Assembly (NCBI GenBank): GCA_963727625.1 | Contig: CAVSHR010000009.1 | Coordinates: 96,001 to 160,000, forward strand | DNA from: an uncultured delta proteobacterium | GTDB taxonomy: Bacteria > Desulfobacterota > Binatia > UBA9968 | Direction: 5' to 3' | DNA: 64,000 nucleotides | Shown here: piece after piece, positions 3,877-18,926 of the stretch | How the letters are laid out: the number at the start of each line of letters is the position of its first letter | Position numbering within the stretch: the stretch's first letter is position 1 | Program-made: the position numbers and the translations under genes | The notes under the pieces: model-generated | The model's database searches: none | What the model saw: only the letters and a program-made list of their open reading frames with translations | Told to the model about the DNA's origin: nothing

Positions 3877-5247
3877 ATGGCCAAGGCTAAAACCATCTTT
3901 GCTTGCCAGTCTTGCGGCTTTCAATCGCCCAAGTGGCTCGGCAAATGCCCCGACTGTAATCAATGGAACACCTTCGCCGAGGAACGATTGGAAAGAGCCG
4001 CGACGCCGCGCGGCGAATTGAGCTTGGGCACCAAGGAGGATCCGGCGCCGATCCACGCGATCGACATGGCCGAAGAAGGGCGCGTGCTCTCGGGCATCGG
4101 CGAGTTCGATCGCGTGCTCGGTGGCGGCCTGGTGCCCGGCTCGGTGATCCTGATCGGCGGCGATCCCGGCATCGGCAAGTCGACGTTGCTGCTCCAAGCC
4201 TTCGCCGCCGTCAGTCAACAGGGGCTGACCTGCCTCTATGTCTCCGGCGAAGAATCGCCGCGTCAAATCAAAATGCGCGCGGAACGGCTCGGCATCGACG
4301 CGCCCAATCTCCTGGTGCTGAGCGAAACTTCGCTGGAAAGAATTCTCGACCACCTCAAGAAGATCAAACCCGGCCTGCTGGTCATCGACTCGGTGCAAAC
4401 GATTTTTTCCACGGCGATCCCTTCGGCGCCCGGCAGCATTGCCCAGGTCAGAGAAGCCTCCGGCTCGATCATCGTGCTGGCAAAAAAAACCGGGCTCACG
4501 ACCTTTTTGATCGGCCACGTCACTAAAGACGGCGCCATCGCCGGGCCGCGCCTGCTCGAGCACATGGTCGACACGGTGCTCTATTTCGAAGGCGACCGCG
4601 GCCACAGCTTTCGGATTCTCCGCGCGGTTAAAAACCGCTTCGGCTCGACCAACGAGATCGGTGTGTTCGAAATGAAGGAAGCGGGACTCAAAGAAGTCAG
4701 CAACCCGTCGGAAATTTTTCTGATGGAGCGGCCCCTGGCGGTGCCCGGTTCGGCGGTGGTCTGCAGCATGGAAGGGACCCGGCCGATTTTGGTCGAGTTG
4801 CAAGCCCTGGTCAGCCGTTCTTTTTTAGCCGTGCCGCGGCGCACGACCATCGGCGTCGATCACAACCGCGTCGCCTTGCTCGTTGCCGTTTTAGAGAAGA
4901 AGATGGGCGCCAAGCTCTTCGATCAGGATATTTTCGTCAACGTCGCCGGCGGCGTCCACGTCGACGAGCCGGCGGTCGACCTCGGCATCGTCACAGCGAT
5001 CGCGTCGAGCAGCCGGGAAAACGTGCTCGACGCCAAGACAGTCTTTTTCGGCGAAGTCGGCCTCGCCGGCGAAATTCGCGGCATATCCCAGGCCGAGGCG
5101 CGCGTCAAAGAAGCCGGTAAACTCGGCTTCGAACGCTGCATCTTGCCGTCGAGCAACATTCCGCAATTGAAGCATGTCAAGCATCCCAGCCTCGCCGGCG
5201 TCAGCTCGCTCAGCGAATGCTGGAAGCTGCTGTTCAAAAAGGACTGA
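3877..5247 (+). CDS. radA: DNA repair protein RadA/Sms
   Basis: N-terminal C4 zinc finger, GGDPGIGKST, KNRFG motif, Lon-like C-terminus. Confidence 0.97.
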   Translation: MAKAKTIFACQSCGFQSPKWLGKCPDCNQWNTFAEERLERAATPRGELSLGTKEDPAPIHAIDMAEEGRVLSGIGEFDRVLGGGLVPGSVILIGGDPGIGKSTLLLQAFAAVSQQGLTCLYVSGEESPRQIKMRAERLGIDAPNLLVLSETSLERILDHLKKIKPGLLVIDSVQTIFSTAIPSAPGSIAQVREASGSIIVLAKKTGLTTFLIGHVTKDGAIAGPRLLEHMVDTVLYFEGDRGHSFRILRAVKNRFGSTNEIGVFEMKEAGLKEVSNPSEIFLMERPLAVPGSAVVCSMEGTRPILVELQALVSRSFLAVPRRTTIGVDHNRVALLVAVLEKKMGAKLFDQDIFVNVAGGVHVDEPAVDLGIVTAIASSSRENVLDAKTVFFGEVGLAGEIRGISQAEARVKEAGKLGFERCILPSSNIPQLKHVKHPSLAGVSSLSECWKLLFKKD

Positions 5248-5384: not shown

Positions 5385-5470
5385 GCCGGAGTGGTGGAAT
5401 GGCAGACGCGCCGGACTCAAAATCCGGTAGGGGAAACCCTGTGCGGGTTCAAGTCCCGCCTCCGGCACCA
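5385..5470 (+). tRNA. tRNA-Leu(CAA)
   Basis: GCCGGAG acceptor, GGAATGGCAGAC D-loop, CCGGA-CTCAAAA-TCCGG anticodon arm, long variable arm, GGTTCAAGTCC, encoded CCA. Confidence 0.97.
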
Positions 5471-5724
5471 CTTCCCTCTGATCTTACCCGACCTTTCTTT
5501 TTTGATAGGTGTTCGCTGAGTCAGCCGGCGGCGTGCCGTTCGACCATGAGACAATTGATGCACCCTTTACCTGAAGTGGAGGCGTCTCCGAGTACAAGAA
5601 AGGAACGTAATCCCTCGAATGCTCACGCTCAGCCCACCACGCACCAAGCGAATCCAGCCCTCGCGACGAATTGACAATGACCAAGATAATGCACAACTCA
5701 GGCCTGACCCCTCTGCGACACACT

Positions 5725-5950
5725 AAAGCAGGAGTGCTACGGTGAACCCCGCGTTTGATCTGTTGTTCGGTGAGCATAGCAAACCAACGCTCGACCAGAT
5801 TGAGCCAGGAGCCGCTAGTGGGAGTGAAGTGCAGATGAAAACGCGGACGCTTGGCCAGCCAGCGGTGAATCAGCGCCATTTTGTGAGTTCCATAGTTGTC
5901 GAGAATCAGATGGACTTCAAGATGAGTAGGGACCTGAGTATCAATGGCTA
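5725..5950 (-). pseudogene. IS630-family transposase fragment
   Basis: VHLILDNYGTHK...LHFTPTSGSWLNLVERWF...IKRGVHRS; truncated at both ends. Confidence 0.85.
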
Positions 5951-6082
5951 GGGTTTATTGTTTCCAAAATGTTTCCACCCTAACTGAACTAAACCATAGG
6001 GACGGCCTTCCCCCCTGCTCATTTGCCCTGTTTTTGTTGCTTTTTTTCTGGTTGAGCTGAGTCCGGAAGTCGGCTAGTGTTT

Positions 6083-6127
6083 TTCGTAATCAGTAGGTCG
6101 CCGGTTCGACTCCGGCGGGTGGCTCCA
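6083..6127 (+). pseudogene. 3' half of tRNA-Thr(CGT), att-site relic
   Basis: TTCGTAATCAGTAGGTCGCCGGTTCGACTCCGGCGGGTGGCTCCA has the anticodon loop, T-arm and CCA; no 5' half upstream. Confidence 0.8.
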
Positions 6128-6275
6128 GTCTTTTCCACTTTCAATTTCGACGGTTAGCACGTTCACTAAAATCCGATCAGAAGGCTCCAGCGGGTCATTG
6201 TAACGGTTTTGTAACGCTGGTGCCTGCTCGGGAGGCGAAAATCGACACCTGCTGGGTCAAAAGGCACATCGGTCA

Positions 6276-6647
6276 TTGATAATTGGATTTAACGGTTGTA
6301 ATTCCCCTGACCGTGCGTGTATAAAATTGACCGCGCCAAGGCTCGACGAAGGTTACAAAAGGGTCGTGTTTAAATTTTCGATGCCGCTATTCATTATTGA
6401 GATTTGGAGCGGATTTAGGCCGTTTCTTATTAAGATCACCATTGATTTTCTCGTAACTGCGAGTTTTTGGATAGGGCTATACCTTTTTAAAATCATGGCA
6501 CATAATATGCCTATACCTGAGCTGGCTGGAAAATTAGTCGTTTACATTCATGCGACGGGAACTGTAGCTGCTGTAGCAATCTTTATGTGGTATTCGATAA
6601 CAGATATAATAGAAATCAAAACAACCAAAATATTATGCCTCGCTTAG
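6276..6647 (+). CDS. small membrane protein, unknown; real start probably GTG 6366 or ATG 6381
   Basis: low-GC ORF with two hydrophobic segments. Confidence 0.5.
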   Translation: MIIGFNGCNSPDRACIKLTAPRLDEGYKRVVFKFSMPLFIIEIWSGFRPFLIKITIDFLVTASFWIGLYLFKIMAHNMPIPELAGKLVVYIHATGTVAAVAIFMWYSITDIIEIKTTKILCLA

Positions 6648-7270
6648 TAAGTTTTACAAAATTTTCAAGAGAATTGTCGAACAGTGTGGCACTGAAAGCT
6701 GGCTTGACTGGCTTTACAATTATCTCTGTGTGCGTTCCAGCGGCAATTTTACTGACCTTCGGTTTTCAGGAGCGTTACGTACTAACTGGAGTTTTAGCGG
6801 CAATTATCCCTTCTCAATATCTAGCGTTCTGTTTTTTAGAGAGTCTTGGCTACTCCACAACACACACTGTTAAGAAGGTCGAAATTCCTGCACCTCTACA
6901 TGAGAGTCCATTATTGCATGCCAATTGGAAACCCTTAACCGGTCAACTGAATAATTGGACATTCGATTTAGTTATTCAGGTTCAGTTGAGGCAACTAAAG
7001 CAGAAGGAAACCGACCAACTGAGAGAAATATTGATGCAAAAGTGGAAAAAGGACGTGCTTAACCTGACTCCGATATTGCAGAAGCCGTTGTTGGAAATTG
7101 TAGACGATTTCACGAGACCTGAAGAGAAATCAATCCAAACCGTAGAATTTAATGACGTCACTAAAATGTCTGCCGGACTGTCTGTAAGTGAGCTCAACCC
7201 ATTTACATCGTTGGATCCAGTAATTCGACTTCAACGAGCACCGTTTGAGCCGGACAATTCGTTTTCGTAA
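6635..7270 (+). CDS. hypothetical protein with 2 N-terminal TM segments
   Basis: ATG 6635 overlaps the upstream ORF end; hydrophobic stretches AGLTGFTIISVCVPAAILLTFG and YVLTGVLAAIIP. Confidence 0.6.
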   Translation: MPRLVSFTKFSRELSNSVALKAGLTGFTIISVCVPAAILLTFGFQERYVLTGVLAAIIPSQYLAFCFLESLGYSTTHTVKKVEIPAPLHESPLLHANWKPLTGQLNNWTFDLVIQVQLRQLKQKETDQLREILMQKWKKDVLNLTPILQKPLLEIVDDFTRPEEKSIQTVEFNDVTKMSAGLSVSELNPFTSLDPVIRLQRAPFEPDNSFS

Positions 7271-7316
7271 TTTTTTCCGAATTAGAAAAACGGAGCTTAA
7301 CAGGTAGGCTAAACCG

Positions 7317-8018
7317 ATGGTCAATTTCGGAAAAAATACTTATCAGTACGAAATCGTTTACAAATTCGATTGTCTATCGATAGAATTCGTAAACGAACTT
7401 GCAAGGCATTTTGTTGGACCAAAAAAACGCTTCTCGATGATCTCAAAAGATGCGGGCAACAATCATACGATAATGTCTACAGGAGCCGGAACGGAAGTAT
7501 CTCCCTTGTTTCAACTCAGAATAGGGGCAGATAGACTAATTTTTTGGGGCGGCTGGTTTGTTTCGCTTGATCAATGGCATCAACACGTCAACCAATTTCT
7601 TCCGGAAATATCGCAGTTTGTTCGGAACATTCCAGTTGAATTTATAGGAAACTTGACCAGCCAATGTAATTTCGCAGTACCTTCGTCGCGACTTAGACGT
7701 GCGACAACCGTTCCTGAATTGGAGCCGGTTGTCAATTTCTACCAAAAGTTTGTTCCAAAAGAACTTCTAAAGCGGGGTAATTTAGTTATGGCTTTTGCCG
7801 ATGAGCAAGGTCGAGAAGTCTTGAGTTGGGGGGTTGGAGGCGGGGTGCCAGTTGCAGGCCATGAAAACATTGGGTTTACTTTCCGATGGAACACCTTTGA
7901 AGACCAATTAGATCTGAAGAGTGCTTTATTGTCGCATTTTTCGAGGTATGAACGGTTTCTGGAAGATTTCCAAAGAGGTTTTTTATCCCTGATTGTTGAC
8001 GAACATGTTCATAATTAA
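7317..8018 (+). CDS. hypothetical protein (possible distant TIGR04255-like)
   Basis: 233-aa low-GC ORF; segment FQLRIGADRLIF...W loosely recalls that family (tentative). Confidence 0.6.
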   Translation: MVNFGKNTYQYEIVYKFDCLSIEFVNELARHFVGPKKRFSMISKDAGNNHTIMSTGAGTEVSPLFQLRIGADRLIFWGGWFVSLDQWHQHVNQFLPEISQFVRNIPVEFIGNLTSQCNFAVPSSRLRRATTVPELEPVVNFYQKFVPKELLKRGNLVMAFADEQGREVLSWGVGGGVPVAGHENIGFTFRWNTFEDQLDLKSALLSHFSRYERFLEDFQRGFLSLIVDEHVHN

Positions 8019-8097
8019 TCTCATACACCCACCGTTGAAACCGTTTTTGATTTAAACTGAAGGCCTTTTCTTAACAGCACTAGGCAACAAACCCTCC

Positions 8098-8232
8098 TCA
8101 CCGCCCCATCGGTATCACCTTAGCCTTCTGTGTCTCGAGATACAGTTGCATTTTCTCACTGGCAGCCTTCAGATCGTCTTCACTGACAATGTGATACCGA
8201 TCAAAGACCGACCTTGTCCGATGCCCACTGAG
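8098..8232 (-). pseudogene. C-terminal stub of a tyrosine integrase
   Basis: LSGHRTRSVFDRYHIVSEDDL = box II GH...Y; cut off at the RAYT-like element end. Confidence 0.8.
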
Positions 8233-8941
8233 AGAGCAGAAAAGGAGAGCAGAAAAGGGGATAAGTCCAATTTTCTCTACCGCTCCTTGCGAGGTCGGCC
8301 CCGCAAGCGCAATGTGGACTTCAATCCTAAACGTTCCGCGATCCATGGTTGCCAACGTTCGTTCCCGAACGGACGACCTCTCTGAGCCGATAACCTGAGC
8401 GTTTCCAATTCTTGATCTTCGGCTGTCTCGTTTACCAAAGTGAGCCAGTCGGCGGGTCTGGGAATCGGCCATTCGGATAACACCAGTCCGGTTGTCTCCG
8501 CAGTTTTAGTAGCCCGCAAACCGAGACTCGACCATCGCCAATCTTCTGCTCGGTCTACTAATTTGGCTCTCAGTGGATTTTGCTCCACGTATCGGCAGAC
8601 CGAAAGAAAATGGTTGTCGTCCTGGACTGGGAAACTCTTATAGGTGCCTTGATAAAGGTGCCCGTTGCCGACACTATGCCGGTTTAAGTGCCAGCGTCGC
8701 ACATGGGTTGTGGTTAGCCGTTGGACAAACCTTCCTAATTCTCCATCTCGCATCGGCCACAGAACCAAGTGCCAGTGATTCGGCATAATGCAATAGGCCA
8801 AAATTCTAACCGATGTTGTTCTTGCTGTCTCAACGAGAATCCGCTCAAAAGCGTTGTAGTCCTGATTCTTTTCAAAGATCTGTGATCGTGCGTTGCCTCG
8901 ATTGAGTACGTGGAAGATGACATCGCCCGGGGCAACCCTAG

Positions 8942-10426
8942 CAGCCCGTGGTAGAAGTCCGATTTTTACAAAACGCATGGGATCGCGGCGAAGCGGTGAC
9001 TTGGGAGCGCAAATAGTCTCAGGTCGAGTCCTCGGCGCCGATGAGCGGTTAGTTGGTCGCGCAGTAGCACCCACAGAGTAAAACAGATAGCCAGTACGGC
9101 GGCAAAACGGCCCTGTAGACCGCGTGGCGTTCCAATTCCCGTCAACGTGCGCATCCACAGGCCCAGATTGCAGGCCGCTACGTGCACGAGTAGCCGTTTG
9201 AGAATATTGCCGTGCCCGCGCAGATGAGTCCGGCGCATGCCGCCGGTCTCGTAGAGATGCGCATTGGGTCGCTCTAACAACTCACCTCGTTGCCGCATCA
9301 ATAGCTGCCCACGCTCGCCTCGAATGCGCCGCCGATTGGCATACACCGCGTCACGCTCAGCCTGCTGACCCTTCCAGTGCTGCCGGCCGCGATCCGGTTC
9401 ACTGATGTAGGTGCGCAGTCCTAGGTTCTGCATATCGAGCACGGTTTGCTTACTGTGATAGCCCTTGTCGGTGACCACTTCCTTGCCTATCTTCACCTTG
9501 TCGTCGATGATCGCAGCCACCGCTTCTAATTGCTCGATTGCCTCAGGCAGCGTCGTCTGGATCGTGGTGGTGTCGCCTTGATCGGCTTCCTGCAGCGTGA
9601 CCGCCACGATGGCACCGGTCTCCAGGTCCACGGCATGCTCGGCTTTGTGCGCTAAATGGGTCCGTCCGTCCTTCATCTTGGCGATCCGTGCGTCGGGGTC
9701 ATGCGGATGTTCCCAGTCCTGGTTAGATCCTTTCTTCTTACGTTTGCGATCCAACTTCGCCAGATCGGCTCGCGTTGGGGTCTCAATGCCGGATTCTTCA
9801 GCCAGCTTGGTCAAAAACTCGTTATAGCTCTCCCCGGTGTCGCGGCGCACGATGCTGCGCAAGGCCGCGTTCGCTTCGAGCGTGGTAGCATCGATCGCCA
9901 GCGTTTTCCCTTTGATGAGTCCGGCGATGCCCAGACACTGAAGTACCCATGTGAACACCGTCCGATGGGTTTCCAAATCGATCAATCGCCGAGTCCGCGA
10001 TATCGTCGAATGATCCGGTGCACACTCGGTCAGCCCCAGCTCAAGGAACGATCGCACTCCCGAGGAGTCCGCCGCGCGCCACGCCATGGCGCGTTCAGAG
10101 TCCAGGCATTCGAAGTAGCCAAGTAATAGAAAACGGAAATATCGTCCAGGCGCCAGACTGGGCCGCCCCATCTTCTCGGCATAGAACGCCCGGCACTGCG
10201 CTTCGACAAACTCGTCGAACCCATGCTTGGCCAATAACCCGTTGAGCTTCTCGTAGAACGGGTGGCTCACAGACTTCGGCAGCTCGCTCACTCCCACCCA
10301 CATCGCTCTCTGCTCTTCGTGTTTTCGTTGTCCCATCGCCATGCAAAAAATTCTACACGATCTATCGTTCCTGTCGACTACTCTCCATCACTCTCCCACT
10401 TCATTCTCGACTTTCACCACGGGCTG
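8942..10426 (-). mobile_element. IS1182-like insertion sequence, 1485 bp
   Basis: 18-bp IRs with 16/18 match (CAGCCCGTGGTAGAAGTC / GACTTTCACCACGGGCTG); CTAG duplicated at 8938-8941 and 10427-10430. Confidence 0.88.
8966..10342 (-). CDS. DDE transposase (IS1182/IS5-like)
   Basis: GRPS, PDHSTISRTR, IDATTLEANA, TDKGY, LLERP motifs. Confidence 0.88.
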   Translation of the reverse strand: MAMGQRKHEEQRAMWVGVSELPKSVSHPFYEKLNGLLAKHGFDEFVEAQCRAFYAEKMGRPSLAPGRYFRFLLLGYFECLDSERAMAWRAADSSGVRSFLELGLTECAPDHSTISRTRRLIDLETHRTVFTWVLQCLGIAGLIKGKTLAIDATTLEANAALRSIVRRDTGESYNEFLTKLAEESGIETPTRADLAKLDRKRKKKGSNQDWEHPHDPDARIAKMKDGRTHLAHKAEHAVDLETGAIVAVTLQEADQGDTTTIQTTLPEAIEQLEAVAAIIDDKVKIGKEVVTDKGYHSKQTVLDMQNLGLRTYISEPDRGRQHWKGQQAERDAVYANRRRIRGERGQLLMRQRGELLERPNAHLYETGGMRRTHLRGHGNILKRLLVHVAACNLGLWMRTLTGIGTPRGLQGRFAAVLAICFTLWVLLRDQLTAHRRRGLDLRLFALPSHRFAAIPCVL

Positions 10427-10618
10427 CTAGCGGTACGAGGCATGCGCCTAGACTAGTCCATGCAGTTACAAAATTGCAATTATTGGACTTATCCCCTTTT
10501 CTCTCCCCGAACTAGATTCACACCGAGCCGCCAGCGTATCGGAAAGGGTGCGCAACTCTCGGCAGAGACTAATGTCGAAACTCTTTTGCGGGAATGTGAG
10601 GAAAGTCCATTAACACCC

Positions 10619-13600
10619 CTAGATTTCTGGATCTCTGGAAACAAACCGACCGTATCTGAGCGCTAAGGTCGGGAGCACCAACAGATTCAGAGCCGTCGAA
10701 GTCACCAATCCGCCAAGAATCACTATCGCCATCGGGCCTTCGATCTCACGGCCAGGGGCGCCGCTGCCGATAGCCAACGGAAGCAAACCCAGGCCGGTAA
10801 CAAGCGCGGTCATGAGAATCGGGGCGAGCCGTTCAGAGGCACCGCGTATGGCTGCATCTATTCCCCAAAGCATTTCCTCGGAGGTGATCAAATGTTCATA
10901 GTGGGAGAGTAGCATGATGGAATTGCGCAGGGTGATACCGAACAGAGTGACGAAGCCGACCATTGATCCGAGCGAGAGTATTCCACCGGAGGCAAATACG
11001 GCCAGCACGCCGCCCAGCAGGGCAAAAGGCAAGTTGATGAGGACCAGGAAGAGATTACGTATATTGCCCACGACAATCGACAACAGCAAAACAATCCCAA
11101 GTCCCGCCAGCAGCGAGTGAACCAACAAATCTCGTCTGGATTGCGCTTGAGCTTCACTTGTACCGGTGAAATCAAGATAAACACCGGGAGGCAAAGAGAC
11201 GGCGGAAAGGATCTGCCGTTTTGCCTGAGCGACAAAGGAACTCACGCTGCGGCCCGCCACATTGCAAGTCACGGTTTGTACTCTTCTGGCCCCCTCGTGT
11301 AGAAGCGCATACCGGCCTGACATTTCATACACGTCGGCCAGCTGTTGCAGGCGCACGTATGTTCCATCGGGGTTGCGAAGCGGCAAAGCCGCCACATCAG
11401 CTATGCTTTTGCGCATCTGTGGATCAAGGATCACCGTTACGTCGGAAACTCGATTCCCTTCGTAGGTTTGACCTACCACATCTCCCTCATAGGCCGCGCG
11501 CACCACTTCGAGGGCATCAACCGGGTCAATACCCCAGCGAGCCAGATCCGCCTTGCGAAGCCGAATTACGAGTTGTGGCGCTCCAGGCGGAGATTGGATC
11601 TGGATGTCGGCGGCCCCTGGTATTTGAGCCAGTAACTTCGCAACGGTCTGAGCCGTGTTGTCTAAAATATCGAGATCATCGCCGAAGATATTAATGACGA
11701 CCGCAGACGTATAACCGGAGAGCGTTTCCTCAACCCGCTCGGTCAAGAAGGTGTTTACGGCAAAGGCCACGCCGACGAACCGCATGAGTATTTTACGGAT
11801 CTCCGACTGCGCCAGCTCGGACTCCCTTTCTCCTCTTAGCGGTTTGAGATCAACCTCAAACTCGCTGTCCTGAGTCCCCAGGATGTCATCGCCTTTTTCC
11901 GCCCTCCCCACGCGCTGGGCAACGGAGCGAACGTAAGGGAGTTTGAGCATTTCACTCGTGAGACGCCGTCCAAGCCGCAGCGATTCCTCCAGCGAGGTGC
12001 CGGGAGCCGCCGACATATGAATAACGAAGTGCCCTTCGTTGAGCTCCGGCAAGAATTCCCCACCGAAGAAGGGAAGCGTTGCCAGTCCTAGGACCGTCAA
12101 AAGCGCTATAATGCCTATTACAAATCGCGACCGACGTTCTATCCGAAGAAGCAGAGCGGAATAGCGCGCTTTCAGCCACCGGACAAGCGGAGGCGCGTCT
12201 TCTTGCATGTTTCGACGACCTAGGACAACAAAGCACAGGGCAGGGGTGACGGTGAGAGCGACGAGCAGAGATGCCAAAATGGCAAAAATGTAGGCAAGGC
12301 CCAATGGGGCAAACAGCCGGCCGGCGAGACCCGACAGGGTTAGGATCGGGATGAAAACCAACACCACCGCAAACGTGGCGTAGACTACTGCGCTGCGCAC
12401 CTCGACCGAAGCGTCAAGAACCACGCGAAAAACCGGTCGCGGAGTCTCCATCTGACGATTCTCACGTAGACGCCTCAGAATATTTTCTACGTCGATGACC
12501 GCATCATCGACCACTTCGCCAATTGCGATGGCCAGCCCGCCGAGAGTCATCGTGTTGAGACTGACACCTAACTGTTGCAGGATCTCTACCGAAGCGAGCA
12601 ATGACAAGGGAATGGCCGTGCAAGAGATGGCCGCCGTGCGGAAGTTGAACAAAAACAGAAACAGGACAATCACGACCAGCAGAGCTCCGATAAGCAAGGA
12701 CGACCGTATATTACTGATGGCAGTGTCGATAAAATTAGCGGGCCGGAACAGGCCCGGATATAACGCAACGTCCTGAGCGATCAGCCCGGCGCGAAGTTCC
12801 TCTAGAGCTTGTTCAACGCGCTCCGATACTTGAAGAGTGTTTGAACCGTACTGCGCTGAAATCATCAGAATGACGCCGGGGCGACCCATAATGGCGGCGG
12901 CGCCGATCGGCGGCGCCGGAGCTTCGACGACCCGGGCGACATCACCCAATGTGATAGCAGCACCGTCGTGATACCCGAGAACCGTGCTTGCGAGCTGATT
13001 TGAGGTGAGCGATTGTCCTTCGCTCCGCAGGACGATGCGCTGGTTCTCGGTATCGATGACGCCTGCCCCCCGAATCCCGGTGGCCTTGCGCGCCGCGCGT
13101 AAGACATCCTCGATCGCGAGGTTGTACTGAATCAGCCGATCCGGTTGCATTTGGATCTGTAGCTGTTTCACGTCGCTGCCGAATACGGCCACTTTAGCGA
13201 CCCCCGGAACGGCTAGAAGGCGCTGCTTCACCGTCCAGTCGGCGAGGCTCCTGAGCTCCATAAGCGAACGTGTTTCGGAGGTCAGGCCTACCGCCAAGAC
13301 CACGCTAGTGGACGACGTTAAGGGCGTCATGACCGGCGCGTCTATCCCTCCCGGTAATTGCCCCGAAACAGAAGCCAAGCGCTCTGCCACCATCTGGCGG
13401 TCAAGATAAATGTCGCTATTCGGACGAAAGGTGACCGTTACGACAGACAGCCCCTGAATCGAGCCGGATCGTAGCGATTCGACCCCCACCACGCCATTGA
13501 CGGCGTTTTCGATCGGTCGAGTAATCAGCACCTCGACCTGCTCGGGTGACAGACCCGGAGCCTCGGTTTGAATCACCGCCTGAGGCGGAGCAAACTCGGG

Positions 13601-13717
13601 GAAGACATCGTAGGTAGCCCGCGAAAGTGTATATAGACCATAGCCCAACCATGCGCATGCCAAGGCCATAACGACACCACGGAAGCGAAGCGAGAAGCGC
13701 ACGATTGCGGCGAGCAC
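10619..13717 (-). CDS. CusA/CzcA-family heavy-metal RND permease
   Basis: DVFPEF, APGLSPEQVE, GEVVDDAVIDVENI, ERLAPILMTAL; 1032 aa. Confidence 0.93.
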   Translation of the reverse strand: MLAAIVRFSLRFRGVVMALACAWLGYGLYTLSRATYDVFPEFAPPQAVIQTEAPGLSPEQVEVLITRPIENAVNGVVGVESLRSGSIQGLSVVTVTFRPNSDIYLDRQMVAERLASVSGQLPGGIDAPVMTPLTSSTSVVLAVGLTSETRSLMELRSLADWTVKQRLLAVPGVAKVAVFGSDVKQLQIQMQPDRLIQYNLAIEDVLRAARKATGIRGAGVIDTENQRIVLRSEGQSLTSNQLASTVLGYHDGAAITLGDVARVVEAPAPPIGAAAIMGRPGVILMISAQYGSNTLQVSERVEQALEELRAGLIAQDVALYPGLFRPANFIDTAISNIRSSLLIGALLVVIVLFLFLFNFRTAAISCTAIPLSLLASVEILQQLGVSLNTMTLGGLAIAIGEVVDDAVIDVENILRRLRENRQMETPRPVFRVVLDASVEVRSAVVYATFAVVLVFIPILTLSGLAGRLFAPLGLAYIFAILASLLVALTVTPALCFVVLGRRNMQEDAPPLVRWLKARYSALLLRIERRSRFVIGIIALLTVLGLATLPFFGGEFLPELNEGHFVIHMSAAPGTSLEESLRLGRRLTSEMLKLPYVRSVAQRVGRAEKGDDILGTQDSEFEVDLKPLRGERESELAQSEIRKILMRFVGVAFAVNTFLTERVEETLSGYTSAVVINIFGDDLDILDNTAQTVAKLLAQIPGAADIQIQSPPGAPQLVIRLRKADLARWGIDPVDALEVVRAAYEGDVVGQTYEGNRVSDVTVILDPQMRKSIADVAALPLRNPDGTYVRLQQLADVYEMSGRYALLHEGARRVQTVTCNVAGRSVSSFVAQAKRQILSAVSLPPGVYLDFTGTSEAQAQSRRDLLVHSLLAGLGIVLLLSIVVGNIRNLFLVLINLPFALLGGVLAVFASGGILSLGSMVGFVTLFGITLRNSIMLLSHYEHLITSEEMLWGIDAAIRGASERLAPILMTALVTGLGLLPLAIGSGAPGREIEGPMAIVILGGLVTSTALNLLVLPTLALRYGRFVSRDPEI

Positions 13718-13732
13718 AGCGATTCTTTCCTC

Positions 13733-14779
13733 TCACTCGCCGACATGAATCTGCGATCGCAGTTCTTCCGAGAGAAGTAACTGCGCGCCGGTAGTCACGA
13801 TTTGATCATTAGGGGAGAGATCCGGTTTAACAACCCACCCCTGTTTAACCACAGCCTCGGTTGAAATCTCGCGCCGAACGAATCGGTCGGAGTCTTTCTT
13901 CACATAAACCCACCTCTTTCCCTGCCACCGGACAACGGCTGCGCGAGGCACGATGATGCCGGTCGTCGTCGAGCCGCTCGGCAAATAAGCAAGCACGTTC
14001 ATTCCGGGAAAAAGGCCTGTTGCCCGAGCTGGGGCAATATAGAAAAGGCTCATTCCTTGAATGCGTGGGTCCGTGCTCGGTGCGGGTGAGACTAAGCTAG
14101 CCGATGTAAGGTTTCCCTCTGGGCTCTGGACCCGCACGTTCCGCGGCGTGGAAGAGAGGGCTGAGCCCGGCGGAAGCGTAATCCGCAGTAAGACATCTTG
14201 TCTTTGCATCAAACGTTCAAATTCCTTGGAGTCGTTCAAAAGCCACTGTGCTAGGACGCTGCCCCATCGTTGTCGCACAGTGCTCTCTACGGCATTAAGG
14301 GCAATATCTGCAGCACGCGCGCTTGCGTCATCCGACCGCCAAGCGGCTTCCGCGGACTGGAAAACCTTGACGGAAATATTCCGGTTTTCCTGCAGGGCTT
14401 TTACGCGTTCATATTCTTTGCGCGAAGCCTCAAGCCTTGCTCGTGCCTTTTCCACCTCCGCATGGGCCGCGGCAACGCTGTTGCGAAGATCAACGAGGGG
14501 CTGAAGCTCTATGACCGTTCCGTAGCCTCTGAGCTCTTCCTGATAAGAGACGGCTTTGACTGGAGCGACCTCGATTCCACTCATTTTCTGGGTGGCTCGA
14601 TCTACATTGATGATGCTTTCACCCTTTTCTGTAGATACTCGCGGCGGCGCCTTGACGGGGCGCTCCCGCTCCCGTTCCATAGCCGCCTCTTTACGACTTT
14701 CGACAAAAGCCCAGATCAGAAGCGATCCAATGCCGAGAACAACGATGATCGCCAAAATTATTTTTAGCCTAGGCCTCAT
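13733..14779 (-). CDS. RND periplasmic adaptor (MFP)
   Basis: N-terminal TM anchor, coiled hairpin, PGM and VP-AAVV motifs; between TolC and RND genes. Confidence 0.88.
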   Translation of the reverse strand: MRPRLKIILAIIVVLGIGSLLIWAFVESRKEAAMERERERPVKAPPRVSTEKGESIINVDRATQKMSGIEVAPVKAVSYQEELRGYGTVIELQPLVDLRNSVAAAHAEVEKARARLEASRKEYERVKALQENRNISVKVFQSAEAAWRSDDASARAADIALNAVESTVRQRWGSVLAQWLLNDSKEFERLMQRQDVLLRITLPPGSALSSTPRNVRVQSPEGNLTSASLVSPAPSTDPRIQGMSLFYIAPARATGLFPGMNVLAYLPSGSTTTGIIVPRAAVVRWQGKRWVYVKKDSDRFVRREISTEAVVKQGWVVKPDLSPNDQIVTTGAQLLLSEELRSQIHVGE

Positions 14780-16200
14780 TGGTCTTTCCCCTCGCTCGGT
14801 CGAGGATCTTTCTCAATGATATTTGTGACCGCTTGCGTCGGGTTGAGCGGTTGATGCACCGCATCCTCAAGCGAGCCGATGGTCCGCTGAACTATGGTGA
14901 GGGTGTTGAAGCGGGAAAGTTCGGCGGCGGCGACCTCCAGATCAGCGCTGCGCAGGACCAGCCGATCCACTTGCCCGACGTCGAACTGCGCCTGTACGGA
15001 GTGCTGCTGATTTTTACGGGCGTCCACGAGTCGATCGGCCGTTTCCAGAGCTTGCCGTGCCGCGCGGTATCCGGCCAAAGCCCGGTCGATCGCGCCCATC
15101 ACTTGAGCTTGCAAGGCGATAAAGCGGGCTGCTGCTTCGTGGCGGCGCGCTTCCGCCTCCGCAATGGGTCCTTGATTTTGATTGAAGACCGGCAGCGTCA
15201 ACGATACGCCCAGTGACCATTTATTGTCACCTTGATCCCACGAATAACCCGGACCGAGATGAATGTCGGGATATTGTCTGGCTGTCTCCAGCTGTAAAGC
15301 CGATTGCCTGGCAGCGTAATCCGAAAGTGCGCTCAAAATATCAGGTCGGTTAAGTAACGCTCGACGTTGTACTCTTTCGGAAGGAAGGTCCACCGATGTC
15401 CGAGCAAAAAAGCCAAAAGAGAGATCGATTCCGTCAAGCGCGGCCACTGATAATCCGAGTGCATCGGCGAGCCGTACCCGCGCCTCGGCGCTTTGTTTTT
15501 GCGCATCGCGCAGAGAAAGCTGAGTGCGAGCAAGAGCGATACGCTCCTGGGTAAGATCAGGCTGGGATGCTTCGCCAAGCTCAAGCCGCTGTTCGAGAAG
15601 TTTAACAACCTCCTGTTGAACCGTTTCCTGTTTCAATAAAAAGGTTTCAGTCTGACGCGACGCGTAAAGCTCGACTAGGCGCGCTCGCAAACGGCTTCGC
15701 ACTTGCCACGCCACAGTGGAGATATTTAGACGGGCCGCTTCGAAAAGGTGCTTCGCTTGATCGATGCGATATCCTCGCTTACCAGCGGTTTCTATCGGGA
15801 TGTCGAGGGTCGGGGTCACGATCCAAGGCGAAATCCCACCTGTGGCGCTAAAGTTGTATTCGGGGAGGAAGCTAACATTCGGATTGGGATGTTCACCAGC
15901 GGTGATCACGATGGCCTCGGCAATGCCCCACTTGGCACGCACAACGTCCAGGTCCGGATGGTAATAAAATGCCGCGAGCCTGAGCATCTGAAAATCCCAG
16001 ATCTTAGGCGGCCAAGACGCTAATTCATGGCCAAGGTTGGTCCTGAGAAATTCTTTTAAACCCGCGGTATCGAGCGTGCGGGCTTTAAACTCTGCGGCTG
16101 TCTGAGTCGGAGCAAGTGGCCTCGGCCGGAATGTCGCACACCCGTCAAGGAGGGCGGCGATGGTTATAAACGCCAGAGTGCGACTAATCCGCTTCTCCAT
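14776..16200 (-). CDS. TolC-family outer membrane factor (lipoprotein)
   Basis: lipobox LLDGC, ETAGKR, YPDIHLG, LPVFNQNQGPI. Confidence 0.9.
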   Translation of the reverse strand: MEKRISRTLAFITIAALLDGCATFRPRPLAPTQTAAEFKARTLDTAGLKEFLRTNLGHELASWPPKIWDFQMLRLAAFYYHPDLDVVRAKWGIAEAIVITAGEHPNPNVSFLPEYNFSATGGISPWIVTPTLDIPIETAGKRGYRIDQAKHLFEAARLNISTVAWQVRSRLRARLVELYASRQTETFLLKQETVQQEVVKLLEQRLELGEASQPDLTQERIALARTQLSLRDAQKQSAEARVRLADALGLSVAALDGIDLSFGFFARTSVDLPSERVQRRALLNRPDILSALSDYAARQSALQLETARQYPDIHLGPGYSWDQGDNKWSLGVSLTLPVFNQNQGPIAEAEARRHEAAARFIALQAQVMGAIDRALAGYRAARQALETADRLVDARKNQQHSVQAQFDVGQVDRLVLRSADLEVAAAELSRFNTLTIVQRTIGSLEDAVHQPLNPTQAVTNIIEKDPRPSEGKDQ

Positions 16201-16498: not shown

Positions 16499-16530
16499 TT
16501 GACTCTGTACCTAGGTACGGAGTGTACATT
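16499..16530 (+). promoter_or_regulatory. MerR-type promoter/operator
   Basis: TTGACT-20 bp-TACATT with dyad CTGTAC-CTAG-GTACGG in the long spacer. Confidence 0.85.
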
Positions 16531-16550: not shown

Positions 16551-17027
16551 ATGCATGGCTTGACCATAGGGCAGCTCGCCAAAGAGAGCAACGTGCACGT
16601 TGAAACGATCCGTTATTACGAGCGCCGAGGATTAATTTCCAAGCCGCCGCGATCGGTCTCAAATTACAGGATGTATTCCTCCGAGAATCTACGCCGCTTA
16701 AAATTTATCAAGCATGCACAGGGACTCGGCTTCTCCCTAAAAGAAATTAAGGAGATTCTGTCTTTGCGTGCAATCCCGCGCGCTAGGTGTGCCGATGTTC
16801 AAAAATACACGACTCGCAAAATCGAAGAACTTCAAGAGAGAATTCATTCGCTAACACGCATGCGCAGAAGCCTAGAAAAGCTCCTGCGTGAGTGCTCCGG
16901 AGACCTGCCGGCGACAGAGTGTCCGATACTTGAGTCGATGGAATCTGAAAACCGAAAAAACCGATCAATTAAATTCAAACGAAAAGGAGCGGTTTATGAG
17001 CAAAAAAAGGGAAATCGAAATTTATAG
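16551..17027 (+). CDS. merR: MerR-family metal-responsive regulator
   Basis: TIGQLA...VETIRYYERRGL HTH; three-Cys pattern ARC...ECSGDLPATECPIL. Confidence 0.85.
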   Translation: MHGLTIGQLAKESNVHVETIRYYERRGLISKPPRSVSNYRMYSSENLRRLKFIKHAQGLGFSLKEIKEILSLRAIPRARCADVQKYTTRKIEELQERIHSLTRMRRSLEKLLRECSGDLPATECPILESMESENRKNRSIKFKRKGAVYEQKKGNRNL

Positions 17028-17265
17028 TGCGGGCTGCCCGGCATGTGAGGACGCGATCAAACTGGTAAACGGCATCGCCTGTGACTCTTGCGAGGTCACG
17101 GTACTCGATATGCAGGATCGGGCGGTAGCCCAGAGAGCGAAGACTCTTGGGATCCAAAGCATACCGGCAGTCGTGATCGATGGAAAGCTCGCCGCCTGCT
17201 GCAAAGGACGCGGTATCAGTGAATCCGCGCTGCGCAGCGAGGGGATCGGTCAACCGTTGCCTTAG
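16996..17265 (+). CDS. small thioredoxin-fold protein
   Basis: AGGAG RBS, ATG 16996; GCPAC, IPAVVIDGKL, CC pair. Confidence 0.8.
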   Translation: MSKKREIEIYSAGCPACEDAIKLVNGIACDSCEVTVLDMQDRAVAQRAKTLGIQSIPAVVIDGKLAACCKGRGISESALRSEGIGQPLP

Positions 17266-17278
17266 CATCTAGAAATTT

Positions 17279-17623
17279 ATGCAATTTGAAACCGTTAAGG
17301 CCGGTGTTATAGGCATGTCGGCCGCCATCGTGGCGTCTCTTTGTTGTCTATTGCCTTTGATTGTTGTGCTCCTGGGTTTTGGAAGCGGCGCTTTCATGAT
17401 GGTGACCATGCAATACCGCGCGTTATTCCTGCCCATGGGCGTGCTCGGCGTGTCGTTGGGTTATTATTTGTATTTTCAGAAAAGACGCCGATGTGCCAGC
17501 GCCGGCTGCACCTTCGTGGGCGGGACATTCAATTTGGTTCTTCTTTCCTTGGCCACAGTCATGGTCGCGCTGGCGCTTGGATTAGATTTTTTTCGCAATT
17601 ATCGTCTGAGATGTTGCAGATGA
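17279..17623 (+). CDS. merT: MerT-like membrane metal transporter
   Basis: ASLCCLLP in TM1, YR-LF, cytoplasmic C-x4-C loop, 3 TM; possible frameshift in the T-run near 17587-17593. Confidence 0.75.
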   Translation: MQFETVKAGVIGMSAAIVASLCCLLPLIVVLLGFGSGAFMMVTMQYRALFLPMGVLGVSLGYYLYFQKRRRCASAGCTFVGGTFNLVLLSLATVMVALALGLDFFRNYRLRCCR

Positions 17624-17648
17624 TCATGTAGGCCGGGAGGTCCTCGTT

Positions 17649-17972
17649 ATGAAAGAAAAGCGTATCCTGATCCGTCTTTTTCTTGTTCTTCTCCCTCTTT
17701 GTTGGCTAACCGTCTTTTCGCTGTACACTGAGCCGCTGCATGGGGCTGAACTTAATCAAGTCAACCTACAAATCGAAGGAATGACCTGAGGGGCATGTCC
17801 CGTCACCGTGCGGGCAGCCCTGGAAGGGCTAAAGGGAGTGAAAAAGGCACAAGTGAGTTTCGCCGAAAAAACCGCCACTGTTACCTATGATCCTCAGGCG
17901 ATTGATATCCCGGCAATGGTTCAGGCCGTGAAGAGGGCCGGATTTTTCGCGCGCACGAGCGCGACGAAATGA
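17649..17972 (+). CDS. merP: MerP-like periplasmic HMA protein with in-frame TGA (putative selenocysteine, GMT-U-GAC)
   Basis: GGGAGG RBS; signal peptide; LQIEGMT*GACPVTVRAALEGLKGVKKAQVSF...VTYDP; TGA at 17787-17789 is codon 47; hairpin follows. Confidence 0.8.
17790..17820 (+). promoter_or_regulatory. candidate bacterial SECIS hairpin
   Basis: GGGC-A-TG(T)CCCG-TCACCGTG-CGGGCA-GCCC directly 3' of the TGA. Confidence 0.5.
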
Positions 17973-18002
17973 CTCCTGAAAACGGATCCAGAGGAGGGAT
18001 AT

Positions 18003-18338
18003 ATGAATGACGATCACGGGTCCCGGCAAGGGAACAAGTGTTTTAAGACAGGCGTGTTCGGGACAATTATCGCAGCCATTTGTTGCGCCACCCCTGTCCT
18101 GGCGGTTGCGTTGGCTTCTATAGGCTTGGCGGTCATAGTGCCGAAACTTGATTACGTTCTCCTTCCTGCGCTGCTGATTTTCCTGCTTCTGGCTCTTTAC
18201 GGATTGCGAAAGGGAAGACATGACGGAGACCACCCGAAATGGAGATTGAATCCCCGAACTGTTGTTCAACAGCCGGTCCCGAAACGGTCGAGGACCATTG
18301 CCCGCGTTGTGCCGGCAAAGGAAAGACCGTTTCGCTGA
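18003..18338 (+). CDS. merF: MerF-like transporter with extended C-terminus
   Basis: GTIIAAICCATPVL...LDYVLLPALLIF matches the MerF pattern; GAGGAGG RBS. Confidence 0.8.
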   Translation: MNDDHGSRQGNKCFKTGVFGTIIAAICCATPVLAVALASIGLAVIVPKLDYVLLPALLIFLLLALYGLRKGRHDGDHPKWRLNPRTVVQQPVPKRSRTIARVVPAKERPFR

Positions 18339-18703
18339 TAACTGTTGGGTCAATGGCGAAAACTTCGGTAGAGGCCTGCAAACTCGCCCGGTCATCATAC
18401 CAGCTCTGCCACAATCCCGATTGCTCGGTCGTGTATTTTGCCCCTGGAATTACAATACAAAAAACAGAGCTTCGGGTTCCCGTCAACTTCAAGGAAAAAA
18501 ACTACGACGGCCCTGTCTGTTATTGTTTCAATCACACCGTGGCGAGCATCAGAGCGGAAATTCAATCCACCGGTCGTTCCACAGTCCAAACGGCGATCAC
18601 CAAGGAAATACAAGCGGGGCGTTGCGCCTGCGAGGTCAAGAACCCGGCTGGCTCATGTTGCTTGGGGGATATCACACGGGCTGTGCGAGCTGTGGTTGTT
18701 TAG
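18239..18703 (+). CDS. Cys-rich CopZ N-terminal-like Zn/[2Fe-2S] (BFD-like) protein
   Basis: CPRC, CHNPDCSVVYF, VCYCF, CACEVKNPAGSCC. Confidence 0.82.
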   Translation: MEIESPNCCSTAGPETVEDHCPRCAGKGKTVSLITVGSMAKTSVEACKLARSSYQLCHNPDCSVVYFAPGITIQKTELRVPVNFKEKNYDGPVCYCFNHTVASIRAEIQSTGRSTVQTAITKEIQAGRCACEVKNPAGSCCLGDITRAVRAVVV

Positions 18704-18862: not shown

Positions 18863-18926
18863 CGCGCCGGACTCAAAATCCGGTAGGGGAAATCCTGTGC
18901 GGGTTCAAGTCCCGCCTCCGGCACCA
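18863..18926 (+). repeat. attR: duplicated 3' part of tRNA-Leu
   Basis: 63/64 identical to 5407-5470; preceded by an AT-rich tract. Confidence 0.93.

Follow-up and report, generated by a model that had tools for sequence, protein, structure and literature searches.

A very probable selenocysteine codon in the metal-binding motif of a MerP-like gene, encoded in a merA-less mer-type module on a tRNA-Leu island

Selenocysteine (Sec) in proteins of the HMA/MerP type has been predicted since 2008 and is represented in curated family models, and the findings presented here do not overturn this knowledge. The GOS table of 2008 contains the rows 'Mercuric transport protein MerP' and 'Putative mercuric transport protein' (PMC2398784), MerT-family selenoproteins are mentioned in Haft's 2022 preprint, and a selenoproteome review from 2026 has NF041115, with UxxU as its motif, in its list of families 'predicted with high confidence' (PMC13188914). 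The textbook role of MerP, MerT and MerF is summarised in the introduction of PMC8261052. In this study we analyzed a stretch of 64,000 nucleotides from an uncultured delta proteobacterium of the Binatia (the window), in which an initial annotation, made from the letters alone, had noticed a hidden MerP-like gene with a TGA inside its metal-binding motif. That annotation had also cautioned that Sec-HMA proteins might already be present in computational surveys. The caution was justified: NF041115 is a curated family, and both the GOS table and the 2026 review contain such proteins. For the single-Sec form, the six-gene module and the island location we found no description in the literature, supplementary tables being outside the search. 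The island location and the merA-less module are the only parts of our findings with some novelty.

The gene forms a single open reading frame of 107 codons on the forward strand, from the ATG at 17649 to a TGA ending at 17972 (Table 1). Its sole internal stop, the TGA at codon 47 (17787-17789), replaces the first Cys of a GMTCxxC motif. Exactly 60 sense codons follow it before the terminal TGA (17970-17972), and the second motif position is TGT, giving the motif U-G-A-C. Both the placement of the TGA and the 60 intact codons behind it had been claimed from the outset and can be read directly from the sequence; the claimed ribosome-binding site and HMA fold were recovered as well, the former as a GGGAGG upstream of the ATG and the latter as a Pfam HMA match over residues 40-99 (E 3.8e-16). 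Among the PDB sequence matches of the protein is MerP 1AFI (residues 37-100, E 1.5e-11), and with the Pfam and PDB matches combined there is no doubt about the fold. The N-terminus carries four K/R residues followed by a hydrophobic stretch, with a mean Kyte-Doolittle hydropathy of at least 1.6 in the 15-residue segments starting at residues 4-13. By this charge and hydropathy it fits a signal peptide, and the protein would be exported. Translation under table 11 divides the frame into a first part of 46 aa (17649-17789) and a GTG-started second part of 54 aa (17808-17972). Gene callers split the gene in two, and counts of selenoproteins and of metal-handling functions in soil bacteria would therefore come out too low.

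Table 1. Features of the locus, with positions in the window
Feature	Position	Strand	Details
tRNA-Leu(CAA), integration site	5385..5470	+	tRNA call
Left 64-nt direct repeat (3' part of the tRNA)	5407..5470	+	repeat search
IS1182-family transposase	8966..10342	-	inside the island; multi-copy in the genome
CusA/CzcA-type RND pump, adaptor, outer-membrane factor	10619..16200	-	TIGR00914 689.5 bits vs cut-off 701.45
MerR-type promoter	16499..16530	+	TTGACT, 19-20-nt spacer with 22-nt dyad (16502-16523), GTACAT/TACATT
MerR-family metal sensor	16551..17027	+	Cys80, Cys115, Cys124
Small thioredoxin-fold protein	16996..17265	+	CPAC, CDSC and CC motifs; Thioredoxin_3 3.5e-8
MerT-like membrane protein	17279..17623	+	CC in first TM helix, C72/C77, C-terminal CC
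Shine-Dalgarno-like GGGAGG	17635..17640	+	8 nt 5' of the ATG; direct sequence reading
Sec-MerP-like gene	17649..17972	+	predicted signal peptide and HMA domain, motif GMT-U-GAC
In-frame TGA (probable Sec codon)	17787..17789	+	first Cys position of the metal-binding motif; same-codon TGA in relatives
H1, hairpin of the initial annotation	17790..17821	+	12 bp, two bulges, -17.7 kcal/mol
H2, best SECIS candidate	17816..17830	+	6-bp stem, GGA loop, -8.6 kcal/mol
MerF transporter	18003..18338	+	NF033565 79.4 bits vs cut-off 50
CopZ-N-terminal-type Cys-rich putative Fe-S metallochaperone	18239..18703	+	NF047645 117.8 bits vs cut-off 100; zf_CopZ
Right 64-nt direct repeat, right island end	18863..18926	+	63/64 identical

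The best NCBIfam model for the protein is NF041115, which gave 94.0 bits with U read as C (cut-off 95), and in a six-frame search the same model reached 87.5 bits; automatic pipelines would miss the gene by 1 bit. The MerP model TIGR02052 scored 71.2 bits, below its equivalog cut-off of 92.55. NF041115 was also the best family for all five relatives tested, and one of these, the metagenome locus L028 (50% identity), passed the cut-off with 105.7 bits. By these scores the gene is a borderline member or a sister of NF041115, with one Sec in its motif (UxxC). Members of the family differ in this motif, as the family name '(seleno)protein' and the Cys-form members indicate. In a sample of 401 genomes of the phylum, five genomes held Cys-form NF041115 matches over the cut-off, and few of the 150 matches listed contained a TGA.

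We collected 67 related metagenome loci and read both motif codons: 59 are CxxC, three UxxU, two UxxC and one CxxU, and two loci do not cover the motif. A TGA at the first Cys occurs in exactly the loci that are at least 50% identical to the query (five out of five that cover the motif, 50-73%). Among the 61 related genomes searched, including the unpublished G035, three further UxxU genes were found (L013, L014 and L019). Together with the metagenome loci L026, L027, L028/L029 and L030, the same-codon TGA is present in eight other sequences at 39-73% protein identity, located on separate contigs or genomes; seven of them are distinct, the UxxU metagenome loci L028 and L029 being identical to each other. 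All 56 loci from named genomes are CxxC, each at most 49% identical, and a match at E <= 1e-8 was found in none of the 30 same-genus genomes, the unpublished G005 among them. Cys-form and more distant family members have TGC or TGT at the Sec column, and all four forms (CxxC, UxxC, CxxU and UxxU) occur in this HMA/MerP-like protein group. The initial annotation had proposed to look at this codon in homologs: the nearest ones carry TGA and not TGC or TGT, and their downstream frame is conserved. It had also considered a sequence error; as the TGA recurs on independent contigs, a one-off error of assembly can be ruled out.

Some further observations concern the same codon. In two loci, L048 and L173, Sec is found only at the second motif position (C-G-L-U and C-S-G-U). 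L015 was rejected as a Sec site, its TGA lying upstream of a CxxC motif. A word-index protein search returned only three relatives, one of them a 59-aa fragment that starts after the TGA position. The closest database protein, P0002 (107 aa, 77% identity), shows W at the Sec position; its contig could have been translated under a code with TGA as Trp, or the codon could be a true TGG. A 169-nt contig of run X2 covers 17734-17900 with five differences.

The window gene and its relatives L026, L027 and L028 are all full-length, with 107 codons each and no indels. For the part 3' of the TGA, comparison of the window gene with these three gave dN/dS values of 0.12/0.80 = 0.15 (L026), 0.16/0.43 = 0.37 (L027) and 0.33/1.41 = 0.23 (L028). 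Judged by these ratios, the frame after the UGA is under purifying selection. The genome carries the cluster a second time (MerR/MerT/Sec-MerP/MerF; L018, G000:C12:54630-57743, minus strand), in decayed form: the MerP of this copy has kept the motif TGA-GGG-GCC-TGC but lacks an N-terminus and has at least two frameshifts, and the MerT of this copy is frameshifted too.

The host genome (6.6 Mb in 15 contigs, 98.45% complete) encodes a tRNA-Sec that scores 76.7 bits, over the cut-off, and is called tRNA-SeC(tca) by ARAGORN. It also contains selA (607.5 bits), selB (397.5 bits) and selD (377 bits), each over its curated cut-off and adjacent in the order selA-selB-selD, so that the full set of Sec genes the initial annotation had suggested searching for is present. 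The selD gene (G000:C5:718540-719466, L011), directly 3' of selA and selB, has one in-frame TGA of its own, and the host SelD is probably itself a selenoprotein. In a search of sequencing runs, no RNA run containing the stretch was found, the best share of words being 0.19. On the evidence of the host Sec genes, the TGA shared with relatives and the dN/dS values, the Sec-MerP-like gene is very probably a real selenoprotein gene in which the TGA encodes Sec. This reading goes beyond chance because the TGA and the downstream frame are conserved in relatives, and not because of a hairpin.

As to the hairpin, published rules for the bacterial SECIS (bSECIS) prescribe a stem of 4-16 bp that closes a loop of 3-9 nt, a G among the first two nucleotides of this loop, a distance of 16-37 nt from UGA to loop and a minimum free energy of at most -7.5 kcal/mol (PMC13188914, legend of Fig. 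2). H2, with the sequence AGCCCU-GGA-AGGGCU and a loop that starts 32 nt after the UGA, satisfies all four constraints as quoted in that legend, on loop and stem size, G, spacing and energy. The initial annotation had described a GC-rich hairpin starting directly after the TGA. Such a hairpin exists (H1, its 3' arm overlapping the 5' arm of H2), but by its energy alone it is not beyond chance, and it misses two of the rules, its loop CACCGU starting 14 nt after the UGA and having no G in positions 1-2; H2 fits instead. Folding energy of the 65-nt stretch gave z = -1.21, with 25 of 200 shuffles at least as stable, and an Rfam scan of 17600-18000 (E <= 10) returned no SECIS family, only a chance snoRNA match.

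Covariation lends the hairpins little support, as it was judged on eight related sequences with only two pairs changed on both sides. Across these eight, 91% of the cells of H2 are paired; H2 is kept in seven, and its outer pair is GC in some sequences and CG in others. For the inner stem of H1, 65% of the cells are paired, and the long stem occurs only in the closest relatives. Synonymous sites are invariant in the H2 codons 57, 58 and 60 (GCC, CTG and GGG) and codon 59 is GAA in seven of the eight sequences, while synonymous sites of other conserved-residue codons near H2 vary freely. By the published rules and by its conservation, H2 is most likely the acting SECIS. However, L027 has kept both TGAs and has no H2 (-2.2 kcal/mol), H1 being the only stable hairpin there, so H1 or both hairpins together may be the functional element. 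In the UxxU relatives, two hairpins could serve two UGAs.

We consider it very improbable that the gene is a nonsense pseudogene, i.e. a MerP gene killed by a mutation of TGC or TGT to TGA, or the product of an assembly error. It is true that table 11 splits the ORF and that a decayed paralogous cluster is present in the same genome. However, the TGA is found at the same codon in eight other sequences (seven distinct, 39-73% protein identity), the gene shows no indels and a dN/dS of 0.15-0.37 after the TGA, and synonymous sites are conserved around the hairpins; true decay in this genome, as in the C12 copy, takes the form of several frameshifts. Taken together, the Sec genes, the conservation of the TGA, the dN/dS values and the contrast to the decayed copy rule out that the TGA arose by a recent nonsense mutation or by faulty assembly. 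We give slightly less credit still to a UGA that is read through by another route than Sec, be it near-cognate insertion of Trp or Cys or a reassigned code. The W of P0002 at this site would agree with it; against it, the gene itself ends in TGA and long normal table 11 ORFs extend across the window, which means that TGA is a stop here. Moreover, the metal loop would lose a ligand if Trp were inserted, relatives show either Sec or Cys in this column (UxxC, CxxU, UxxU, CxxC), and the host has a complete Sec system.

The Sec-MerP-like gene is the fourth in a same-strand set of six genes: MerR, Trx-like, MerT, MerP, MerF and CopZ-N-terminal-type. A promoter with an over-long spacer precedes the set, a layout typical of MerR-activated promoters, and we take it to resemble the Tn501 mer operator. 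A simple promoter scan missed it because such a scan allows only spacers of 16-18 nt. The MerR-family sensor scored 142.2 bits with TIGR02051 (cut-off 150.85) and 128.7 bits with the CueR model (cut-off 147.4), and matches of the MerT-like protein to MerT families are weak and below the cut-offs. All six module genes are collinear in L027 (73-89% identity); L026 has five of them, its contig starting inside the module. In all six other distinct Sec loci with upstream DNA, the gene immediately before the Sec gene is MerT-like. The Cys-form loci have the same partner genes, and the Trx-like protein is also conserved in the module.

Three side observations were made in these genes. The stop codon of merF in the relatives is a TGA that shares bases with the start codon of the following gene (ATGA); in the window this stop codon reads TGG, so that MerF has lost its stop and runs on for about 33 extra codons to 18338 (18228-18338), overlapping the CopZ-N-terminal-type gene in a different frame. 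A 196-nt soil metagenome contig (X1, depth 2.4) joins 17713 to 18271 without mismatches and skips 557 nt, i.e. most of merP and merF; this junction may reflect either a deletion variant or an artefact of the assembly. Finally, L028 contains two more candidate selenoprotein genes, one at 4965-5219 for a small cytoplasmic HMA protein with V-T-U-E-R-C and one at 5756-6121 for a glutaredoxin-like protein with G-U-A-S-C.

We put the odds that the metal handled is Hg(II) at somewhat better than even. A canonical merA was found neither at the cut-off in the 98.45% complete genome (best TIGR02053 score 380.7 against 454.45; the two best MerA candidates are PRK06370-type FAD oxidoreductases) nor in the homologous 8-kb metagenome locus L028, which leaves a gap in the textbook pathway, where reduction follows import, and makes Hg(II) less than certain. 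It is possible, if less likely, that the protein is a real exported Sec-HMA protein for another thiophilic metal (Cu(I), Ag, Au, Cd or Zn), or that it serves sensing or sequestration and not the uptake of mercury for detoxification. Besides the missing merA, this alternative is favored by the cytoplasmic partners, which are thioredoxin-fold and CopZ-N-terminal-type proteins, by the CusA/CzcA-type pump that adjoins here and the P-type ATPase that adjoins in L028, by the regulator's score near that of CueR (128.7 bits, cut-off 147.4), and by the copper-ATPase HMA domains that outscore MerP in the PDB sequence matches. On the other side, MerR is the top family of the regulator, whose cysteines 80, 115 and 124 form what we take to be a Hg-type pattern; MerF is over its equivalog cut-off (79.4 against 50), and MerP TIGR02052 outscores every CopZ model on the Sec-MerP-like protein.

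The module is part of a 13,456-bp insert at tRNA-Leu(CAA), bounded by 64-nt repeats. DNA of same-genus genomes matches the window only up to about 5470 and again from 18863. In the same genus, G015:C472 represents the empty site, in which an intact tRNA-Leu(CAA) joins the left flank to the right flank without interruption, and in G025:C53 the tRNA directly adjoins the right flank. The mobile island that had been proposed in the initial annotation has thereby been given its ends, its repeats and an empty counterpart. Besides the module, the island contains the CusA/CzcA-type RND efflux operon, an IS630 remnant, a RAYT-like gene, an IS1182-family element and two ORFs without a family. No integrase was found among the five ORFs scanned between the tRNA and the efflux operon (5484-10342; ORFs 6276-6647 and 8098-8472 left out), namely the IS630 remnant, the RAYT-like gene, the IS1182-family transposase and the two without a family. 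The IS1182-family element (8231-10431) has 100%-identical copies in at least three other places of the genome (C14, and C4 twice) as well as diverged copies, and it looks recently active. From 6000 to 8000 the GC content drops to 0.42-0.44, compared with about 0.56 around; the ORFs in this low-GC stretch (6587-7270 and 7317-8018) have no NCBIfam match.

The explanation that we consider best, and in which we have good confidence, is an intact gene for an exported MerP-type HMA protein in which UGA is read as Sec and which captures a soft metal as part of a mer-like module on an island. In the proposed mechanism, the UGA at 17787-17789 would be decoded by the host's SelB and tRNA-Sec, directed by a hairpin in the coding sequence, most likely that at 17816-17830, and the metal site would be Sec-x-x-Cys. 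Once exported, the protein would bind a soft metal in the periplasm, with Hg(II) as the likeliest ion, and would hand it on through ligand exchange to vicinal Cys pairs in the neighboring MerT-like and MerF membrane proteins; the exposed first ligand would be a selenolate, which should speed capture as well as exchange. We infer this periplasmic capture and the hand-off to membrane Cys pairs from the textbook role of MerP, MerT and MerF as summarised in PMC8261052. Induction of the set would fall to the MerR-type sensor, whose gene opens the operon, and the six-gene module would have arrived together with the RND metal-efflux operon on the 13.5-kb island at tRNA-Leu.

A more tentative hypothesis goes further: the six genes might constitute a self-contained, undescribed and MerA-independent soft-metal system, with very tight periplasmic capture by the selenolate, that travels between Sec-decoding soil bacteria as cargo of tRNA-Leu islands. 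If this were true, a selenoprotein gene would be spreading horizontally together with metal-efflux genes. A Sec gene on a mobile island works only in a Sec-decoding recipient, and the locus would be a natural case for studying how selenoprotein genes spread. As for the module without merA, it is a testable candidate for handling mercury-like metals by a non-reductive route.

How does the locus compare with systems that have been described? NF041115 (UxxU_metal_bind) is likewise a small protein with an HMA domain whose metal-binding motif contains Sec, and its Cys-form members have signal-peptide-like N-termini as well; it differs in that UxxU has both Cys as Sec, whereas the gene in the window has only the first. 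With the GOS entries it shares the computational prediction of Sec in mer-type transport proteins; those entries, which we compared by their description only, come from marine metagenome reads, and the table row carries no motif (PMC2398784). The 'MerT/CopZ fusion-like heavy metal transport selenoprotein' (NF045683) and the MerTP fusions (NF033556) likewise combine a MerT part with an HMA domain able to carry Sec. In our locus, however, MerT and HMA are separate genes, and the HMA part reaches 54.7 bits with NF045683 against a cut-off of 375. CopZ/Atx1-type copper chaperones and the N-terminal HMA domains of P-type ATPases share the fold and the MxCxxC loop; they are cytoplasmic and have Cys only, in contrast to the predicted export signal, the Sec and the mer-type neighborhood found here. 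MerP itself (TIGR02052; PDB 1AFI/1AFJ/2HQI and 1OSD) resembles the protein in its HMA fold and its GMTCxxC-type loop and, to judge by charge and hydropathy, probably in a signal peptide; the resemblance extends to the gene's position immediately behind a merT-like gene and ahead of merF, with a MerR-family regulator. The gene described here differs from it in a score below the TIGR02052 cut-off, in a predicted Sec in place of the first Cys of the loop, and in an operon that contains no merA.
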